A DNA stretch of 64,000 bases from Escherichia coli O157:H7 (GTDB lineage Bacteria; Pseudomonadota; Gammaproteobacteria; Enterobacterales; Enterobacteriaceae): NCBI RefSeq assembly GCF_013167455.1, contig NZ_CP038328.1; one strand, given 5' to 3'. The notes below the pieces were generated by a model that searched no databases, had not been told where the DNA came from, and was given only the letters and a program-made list of their open reading frames with translations. The number at the start of each line of letters is the position of its first letter. The first letter of the stretch is position 1. Shown one piece after another: positions 28,598 through 29,119 of this stretch. A program made the position numbers and the translations under genes.

Positions 28598-28989
28598 AAT
28601 CTATTCGCCTTATATATGTCTGGAGGTTTTGAGTATGATGATTAATTATTATCGCCAGAACGAAATGTGCACGAAAAATTGCTATAAGAATTGTGTCACT
28701 TTTATCATTGTGATATGACCACTTCGTCATTAATCTTATGATCGTTTAAATAGTACCGCCAAATCACGCAACGAACTTTGCTGGATTCAGTTTATGCTGC
28801 TGTAAATTCGCTCGCAGTAAACCTTTCAGACGCTCCGTGATGTTATCAGTTGTTCTTTAAGCGTTTTGCTGGTGTACTCACTACAAACGAATTGCGAATC
28901 GAATCAATGTGAAACGGAAAGGTACAATCTCCCTTTTTTTAGTGTTAACATCGCTCAACCGGGTGGAAGGTGAGAGGTTAATGTCTTTC

Positions 28990-29119
28990 ATTTGTGTACC
29001 TGATTGCGAACCAATTTAGCATTTGTTGGCTAGATGGTTTCGCAATGAACTGTTAATAAACAAATTTTTCTTTGTATGTGATCTTTCGTGTGGGTCACCA
29101 CTGCAAATAAGGATATAAA
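28990..29119 (+). promoter_or_regulatory. thrS leader / translational operator region (autoregulation by ThrRS)
   Basis: Position immediately upstream of the thrS start; assigned from established knowledge of thrS autoregulation, boundaries approximate. Confidence 0.35.

Follow-up and report, generated by a model that had tools for sequence, protein, structure and literature searches.

The espL1-thrS spacer

We examined the 522-bp interval at positions 28598-29119 of a 64,000-nucleotide stretch of Escherichia coli O157:H7 DNA, the whole of which is called the window below. The interval lies between the start codon of espL1/arpB (28597, minus strand) and the ATG of thrS (29120), and thrS is followed by infC-rpmI-rplT-pheMST. 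The original prediction had described a gap of 522 bp from the arpB start to the thrS start, and both the coordinates and the length proved exact. The 522-bp sequence is 100% identical to E. coli O157:H7 chromosomes. It is carried by 5415 of 5426 complete E. coli genomes, and the espL1-bearing segment is nearly fixed in the species (5414 of 5426). Across the E. coli genome matches, no annotated feature falls on the interval. The features that we assign to it and to its borders are collected in Table 1.

The spacer had also been called unusually long and AT-rich. From the RefSeq annotation of an identical strain we compiled every intergenic spacer of 30 bp or more in the window, 47 in all. The espL1-thrS spacer is the longest of the 47, the runner-up measuring 388 bp, and its GC content is 37.4% against 49.3% for the window. 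GC content across the other window spacers ranges from 31 to 60%, with several near 33%; since 37.4% falls within this range, the composition is typical of intergenic DNA and no anomaly. The length and the AT-richness stand as described, but the length is not extreme, and such a composition is nothing unusual for a spacer. It is longer than the remaining divergent spacers of the window, which span 56 to 388 bp, and one of its two halves shows no detectable constraint.

Table 1. Features in and beside the espL1-thrS spacer, in window positions
Feature	Position	Strand	Evidence or remark
espL1 CDS, left border of the interval	26699..28597	-	ORF and annotation; 632 aa, intact here
espL1-proximal spacer half, 254 bp, AT-rich	28598..28851		E. 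coli-specific, single-copy, approximately neutral rate
27-codon ORF (MMINYYRQNEMCTKNCYKNCVTFIIVI), rejected	28635..28718	+	GGAGG at 28622-28626
Alternative espL1 -10 candidate GATAAT	28648..28653	-	suggested by the minus-strand sequence; 5′ UTR would be ~44 nt
arpB-direction promoter, predicted	28681..28708	-	Shimada et al. 2014; K-12 ATGATA-16-TATAAC
Candidate P2, start 28885 (-235)	28850..28885	+	putative TTGTTC (28850-55), 17-nt spacer, TGgTGTACT (28870-78)
thrS promoter P1, extended -10 TGtTAACAT at 28943-28951	28905..28957	+	Kim 2012; conserved across genera
thrS leader (translational operator), 162 nt	28958..29119	+	Kim 2012 start site, 162-nt 5′ UTR
Domain-4 hairpin	29006..29043	+	inverted repeat I2; 8-nt loop AUUUGUUG at 29021-29028
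thrS-sense RNA 3′ ends, K-12 1802649 and 1802639 (-79, -69)	29041 and 29051	+	Term-seq, Adams 2021 supplementary files 1 and 3
Domain-2 hairpin	29072..29106	+	core stem 29078-29084 paired with 29092-29098
thrS Shine-Dalgarno UAAGGA (29108-29113) and AUG (29120-29122)	29108..29122	+	sequence; Shine-Dalgarno as in PMC3858243

Promoter P1 and the thrS operator

The start-site table of Kim 2012 lists a single thrS start with a 162-nt 5′ UTR and gives the promoter sequence as TGTGAAACGGAAAGGTACAATCTCCCTTTTTTTAGTGTTAACATCGCTCAA. Because the sequence upstream of the start ends in ...TTTTTTTAGTGTTAACATCGCTCAA, the start site is placed at 28958 and the extended -10 element of P1 immediately before it, at the position given in Table 1. 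The table of the EDL933 Cappable-seq study quotes 5′ UTR lengths of 163 nt from RegulonDB and 162 nt for EDL933. The expectation that the thrS translational operator needs about 130-160 nt is thus borne out by a mapped leader of 162 nt (Kim 2012 supplement). We also considered a terminator upstream of P1, formed by the hairpin GGAAAGG...CCCTTTTTTT at 28916-28940, and rejected it. With -3.7 kcal/mol and z +0.73, the E. coli hairpin is weak, and a good stem is seen in C. braakii only; the hairpin also overlaps the P1 promoter and has no mapped 3′ end.

Autoregulation of thrS through mimicry of the tRNA-Thr anticodon arm was reportedly described by Springer, Romby and colleagues. ThrRS binds leader hairpins that resemble the anticodon arm of tRNA-Thr, and the 30S subunit is thereby excluded from the weak Shine-Dalgarno sequence UAAGGA (PMC3858243). 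Binding of ThrRS to the leader is established for the K-12 sequence (PMC3858243) and, judged by the sequence, should carry over to O157. The O157 leader has all the parts of the E. coli operator, namely a length of 162 nt, a 7-nt domain-2 loop containing CGU beside the weak Shine-Dalgarno sequence, and the domain-4 hairpin upstream; compared with K-12, the operator sequence is essentially identical and nothing differs. The domain-2 loop is the anticodon-like UUCGUGU (29085-29091), with CGU at 29087-29089.

The leader folds with a z-score of -3.51 relative to shuffled sequence and varies at 2 of its 162 sites in an alignment of 10 E. coli strains. Using 24 related leaders from other Enterobacterales, we obtained a consensus structure that recovers both classical operator hairpins, domain 4 and domain 2, with compensatory changes at 12 of the 23 predicted pairs. 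Seven of the 11 domain-4 pairs show such changes, and in domain 2 the pairs 131/151 and 134/148 covary, each in 5 of the 24 sequences. Covariation of domain-2 pairs is seen in the 24 type-A leaders as well as in 34 leaders of type B (both types are described in the last section). The operator itself is unmatched in an Rfam scan of 28000-29700 at E values up to 10. The classical operator covers just 31% of the interval.

K-12 Term-seq data contain abundant 3′ ends at -79 and -69, located at and just past the domain-4 hairpin, where there is no U-tract. They imply that processing or premature termination leaves a stable piece of the 5′ leader, about 84-94 nt in length, and they are not discussed in the main text of Adams 2021. 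In an avibactam-resistant K-12 mutant from the literature, IS2 has inserted 150 bp upstream of thrS (K-12 1,802,720). This insertion corresponds to window position ~28970, which is 12 nt downstream of the P1 start and lies in the leader, not in the promoter as its paper suggests.

Conservation and origin of the two halves

We compared sequence diversity along the spacer in 10 diverse E. coli strains, taking the fourfold-degenerate sites of thrS (pi 0.023) as a neutral proxy. Variable sites number 29 of 254 in 28598-28851, none in 28852-28904 and 3 in 28905-29119. Nucleotide diversity is 0.038 in the left part and 0.035 in the adjacent espL1 coding sequence, as opposed to 0.0058 in the right part, which comprises promoter plus leader. 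In the wider population, 5418 of 5425 genomes match the right 215 bp at 99% identity or better, whereas for the left 307 bp just 331 of 5425 do so and 597 genomes are at 90-95% identity. Diversity in the 10 strains and identity in the population together indicate that change in the left 254 bp is no slower than at the neutral proxy and that the right 268 bp are strongly constrained.

In a comparison with 80 Enterobacterales thrS loci, homology across genera always stops at or to the right of ~28901-28907, where P1 has its upstream edge. Among these loci, homology to the left part is absent outside E. coli, and none of the 80 non-E. coli loci carries an EspL1 homologue. Many of them have the order ydiY, yniD (on the opposite strand), about 300 bp, and then thrS. 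Homology of one locus (L005) to the window ends at ~26581, just past yniD. This endpoint, together with the limit at the edge of P1, indicates that a segment of ~2.3 kb and 39% GC (~26582-28900) is specific to E. coli. The segment lies between yniD and thrS and consists of espL1, 117 bp of its 3′ flank and ~300 bp of its 5′ flank, a distribution that suggests insertion at this junction. A search for further copies of the left 307 bp, paralogous or mobile, was negative: the sequence is single-copy in E. coli and absent from phages; its 'plasmid' matches are megabase-sized records, not true plasmids.

The ydiY-thrS junction is an island site in Salmonella (PMC5122947). The SL1263-66 island described there shares with the E. 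coli segment the chromosomal junction, low GC content, lineage restriction and a cargo that is often decaying. The cargo itself differs, being one ShET2/EspL-family effector gene in E. coli and lpxR-rfc in the Salmonella island. We found neither a mobility gene nor a repeat boundary for the E. coli espL1 segment.

The espL1 flank and its predicted promoter

espL1 is an acquired, E. coli-specific gene of 39% GC and the orthologue of the K-12 pseudogene arpB. It is frameshifted, interrupted or partly deleted in K-12, in the goose isolate FG92-1, at loci L086-88 and L091-93 and in EPEC E2348/69, and strains with a decayed espL1 retain the spacer. Given its position, the spacer must hold the espL1/arpB promoter, which we presume to lie in the left part. 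Shimada et al. 2014 report an RpoD holoenzyme SELEX peak of low resolution in the spacer and predict one promoter in each direction. The spacer shares these two properties, a holoenzyme peak and promoters predicted both ways, with the type-A divergent spacers of that study. The -10 of the predicted arpB promoter is the poor TATAGC in O157, and site 28682 is polymorphic; a GATAAT on the minus strand is an alternative candidate (Table 1). A consensus scan of the spacer found no minus-strand promoter with at least 9 of 12 matches, and the K-12 table of Kim 2012 lists no arpB start site. The idea that the remainder of the spacer holds the arpB promoter thus agrees with the position of the gene, but the hexamers are weak and a start site is missing from that table. 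Our search of the EHEC effector literature found nothing on the regulation of espL1.

A candidate second thrS promoter

The EDL933 Cappable-seq table gives the thrS start-site distances as '162, 235', compared with the RegulonDB value of 163 for K-12. The classical description of thrS does not include the -235 start site reported for EDL933, which maps to 28885, ~73 nt upstream of the P1 start. We refer to the promoter that it may mark as P2, and the hexamers listed for it in Table 1 are our tentative assignment. They are weak, the -10 being without the conserved A at position 2. Neither the Kim 2012 table nor RegulonDB 10.5, in the form quoted by the EDL933 study, contains the -235 site. It comes from a single data set of very high sensitivity, the EDL933 Cappable-seq data, and that study itself describes a great many non-canonical start sites. 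The block 28852-28904 has no variable site among 53 in the 10 E. coli strains and is unalignable outside E. coli, and the edge of constraint at ~28852 coincides with the putative P2 -35.

P2 is a plausible but minor thrS promoter. We put forward only tentatively, and hold to be somewhat doubtful, the stronger proposal that 28852-28904 is a functional second promoter with its start at 28885 that arose at the edge of the espL1 insertion. The invariance of this block could instead reflect an unrecognised protein-binding site. If P2 is functional, it would give rise to a 235-nt leader that reads through P1, placing an E. coli-specific layer of control on an ancient operator, with condition-specific transcription or an altered leader fold as possible effects. 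The map of constraint shifts the functional edge of the thrS region from -162 to ~-268, and the new edge coincides with the -235 start site reported in O157.

Two upstream regions probably joined back to back

We conclude, with a probability of about 0.8, that the spacer is the thrS control region joined to the 5′ flank of espL1/arpB, and that it is ordinary. Two unrelated pieces of DNA would have been joined here. The right piece of ~268 bp (28852-29119) would be the thrS control region, containing P1 with its start site at 28958, the 162-nt leader and the second start site at 28885. The left piece of ~254 bp (28598-28851) would be the 5′ flank of espL1/arpB and would carry the espL1 5′ UTR and a weak promoter. 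The spacer would then be long because two ordinary upstream regions, of ~270 bp and ~250 bp, stand back to back. As the flank of a dispensable gene that has in many cases become a pseudogene, the left piece would drift at the neutral rate. The original prediction set everything beyond the operator apart as separate AT-rich DNA. This remainder is indeed AT-rich, but ~106 bp of it (28852-28957) is thrS promoter DNA. Nothing new is hidden in the interval, and the spacer is already explained by known elements. Strong constraint is confined to the classical thrS control region, which closes the question and leaves the spacer with little further importance. Its left half is a handy example of neutrally drifting DNA beside a decaying effector gene.

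The remainder had been suggested to hold H-NS nucleation sites, and a site of this kind in the spacer could silence espL1/arpB and perhaps modulate thrS. Acquired DNA of low GC content is the usual class of H-NS target, and the espL1 segment is acquired, E. coli-specific and of 37-39% GC in a 49% GC background. Two-mismatch matches to the H-NS motif TCGATAAATT are denser in espL1 and its 3′ flank (8 in ~1.9 kb) than in the window (105 in 64 kb), and the lack of a listed arpB start site in K-12 (Kim 2012) is compatible with silencing. The 522 bp of the spacer, however, hold one such match (28671-28680), which is the window-average density, and the genomic-SELEX table of Shimada 2014, an in vitro data set, has no HNS flag for the thrS/arpB spacer; the flag is found on 36% of divergent spacers with RpoD peaks (Shimada 2014). 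thrS is moreover essential and highly expressed, with its promoters 250 bp away. The neutral-rate drift of the left part speaks against a specific conserved site, though H-NS binding needs none. We therefore regard silencing from the spacer as unlikely; nucleation within it is unsupported, and spreading of H-NS from the more motif-rich espL1 body is possible. Another reading assigns all 522 bp to the regulation of thrS, for example through activator sites far upstream or through a long alternative leader that starts at ~28759. It would fit the thrS-direction promoter predicted by Shimada et al., TCGTCA-17-TAAAAT, which maps to 28724-28752, and the fact that thrS-linked conservation passes -162 and reaches ~-268. 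Yet this conservation ends abruptly at ~28852, and the DNA to the left drifts neutrally. The TAAAAT -10 depends on a one-base insertion that only K-12 has among the first seven strains, O157 having TAAATA, and Kim 2012 shows no start site at ~28759. The other genera, all of which lack the left segment, control thrS through the same operator, and a regulatory region of this extent is very improbable.

A small transcript or a small protein in the left part is likewise unlikely. In favour of an independent small RNA are three plus-strand sigma-70-like hexamer pairs in or at the edge of the left part (28572-28600, 28679-28708 and 28715-28742) and the RpoD holoenzyme SELEX peak in the spacer. The promoter-like sites are not in excess, at 5 compared with 2.9 +/- 1.7 expected in shuffles, and we found no terminator-like site for such an RNA; the 28916-28940 hairpin, a candidate for this role, is too weak by the values given above and overlaps P1. 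The K-12 Term-seq and Rho tables (Adams 2021), which are complete, place neither a 3′ end nor a Rho region in 18027xx-18030xx under three conditions, except within the thrS leader, and the Kim 2012 table contains no extra start site. The Rfam scan returned one chance snoU13 match only, the fold of the left part is not significant on either strand (z +0.70 and -1.03), and its neutral-rate variation also argues against a functional RNA. The small transcript proposed for the remainder thus found no backing, and we give it hardly any probability. An inverted repeat at 28805-28818 and 28880-28893 was rejected as a structure, as the polymorphisms at 28808 and 28815 are not compensatory. A small protein could be encoded by a 27-aa ORF on the plus strand, or by a 56-aa ORF on the minus strand that would act upstream of espL1 as a uORF. 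A consensus Shine-Dalgarno sequence precedes the ATG of the 27-aa ORF by 8 nt, and the frame is open in 10 of 10 strains. Of its four substitutions, however, just one is synonymous, there is no sign of purifying selection, and the Shine-Dalgarno sequence is mutated to GGAGA in five of the 10. We know of no plus-strand start site reported upstream of 28635. The 56-aa ORF (28730..28560, minus strand), which overlaps the espL1 start, was rejected for its stop codons at loci L086-L088. The exact sequences of both are missing from a collection of 15 billion proteins, and a search by gene name of the small-gene supplements of the Sakai RIBO-seq study (Hücker 2017) found thrS and ECs2425-ECs2427 absent. 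No ORF in the left part came out as under selection in our small-ORF search of the interval, and a small protein is accordingly most improbable. A further 36-aa ORF (28991..28881, minus strand), an unnamed automatic call on some contigs, was also rejected; it runs opposite to the thrS promoter and leader and owes its conservation solely to the invariance of the DNA there.

Related thrS loci and other observations in the window

Within the Enterobacteriaceae, the upstream half of the thrS leader exists in two non-homologous forms (compared with window 28958-29070; loci L005-L083), while the part from ~-49 to the ATG, containing domain 2 and the Shine-Dalgarno sequence, is nearly identical in both. 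Type A, with the classical domain-4 hairpin, is found in E. coli, E. albertii, Salmonella, C. braakii and some others. Type B is found in many Citrobacter, Klebsiella, Kluyvera, Raoultella and Kosakonia, and also in two records labelled E. coli (E69 and SCPM-O-B-8794). It has a different hairpin with an invariant 8-nt loop, AGAGUGAA, and a covarying stem, one pair of which is CG in 21 sequences, UA in 9, AU in 1 and GC in 1. No Rfam model matches either type. The presence of both leader types in Citrobacter, and again in Kosakonia, suggests that alleles have been replaced by recombination.

Two loci depart from the usual arrangement upstream of thrS. The goose isolate FG92-1 (L003) keeps just the first 143 bp of the espL1-side spacer, up to the equivalent of ~28740, and this remnant is followed by IS1 and by lambdoid prophage genes (ybcN, ninE, rusA and Q). 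Its thrS leader, which shares just 79% identity with the usual one, is found ~18 kb away; the distance and the divergence suggest a large replacement or rearrangement at the junction. E. albertii NBRC 107761 (L004, positions 1-1356) has 1.35 kb upstream of thrS without an ORF longer than 66 aa. This DNA has no similarity to espL1, yniD or ydiY and may be a decayed island.

Elsewhere in the window, overlapping near-consensus H-NS-type motifs lie at 26665-26680 in the espL1-yniD spacer, TCGATATATA on the plus strand and TCGATACATA on the minus strand. The pair is at the far end of the acquired segment and is a better nucleation candidate than any in the 522-bp interval. The IS3-family element IS1203 interrupts chbA (10830-12436), the chitobiose-operon gene for the PTS IIA component, and ydjO (18558-19360) is annotated as frameshifted.
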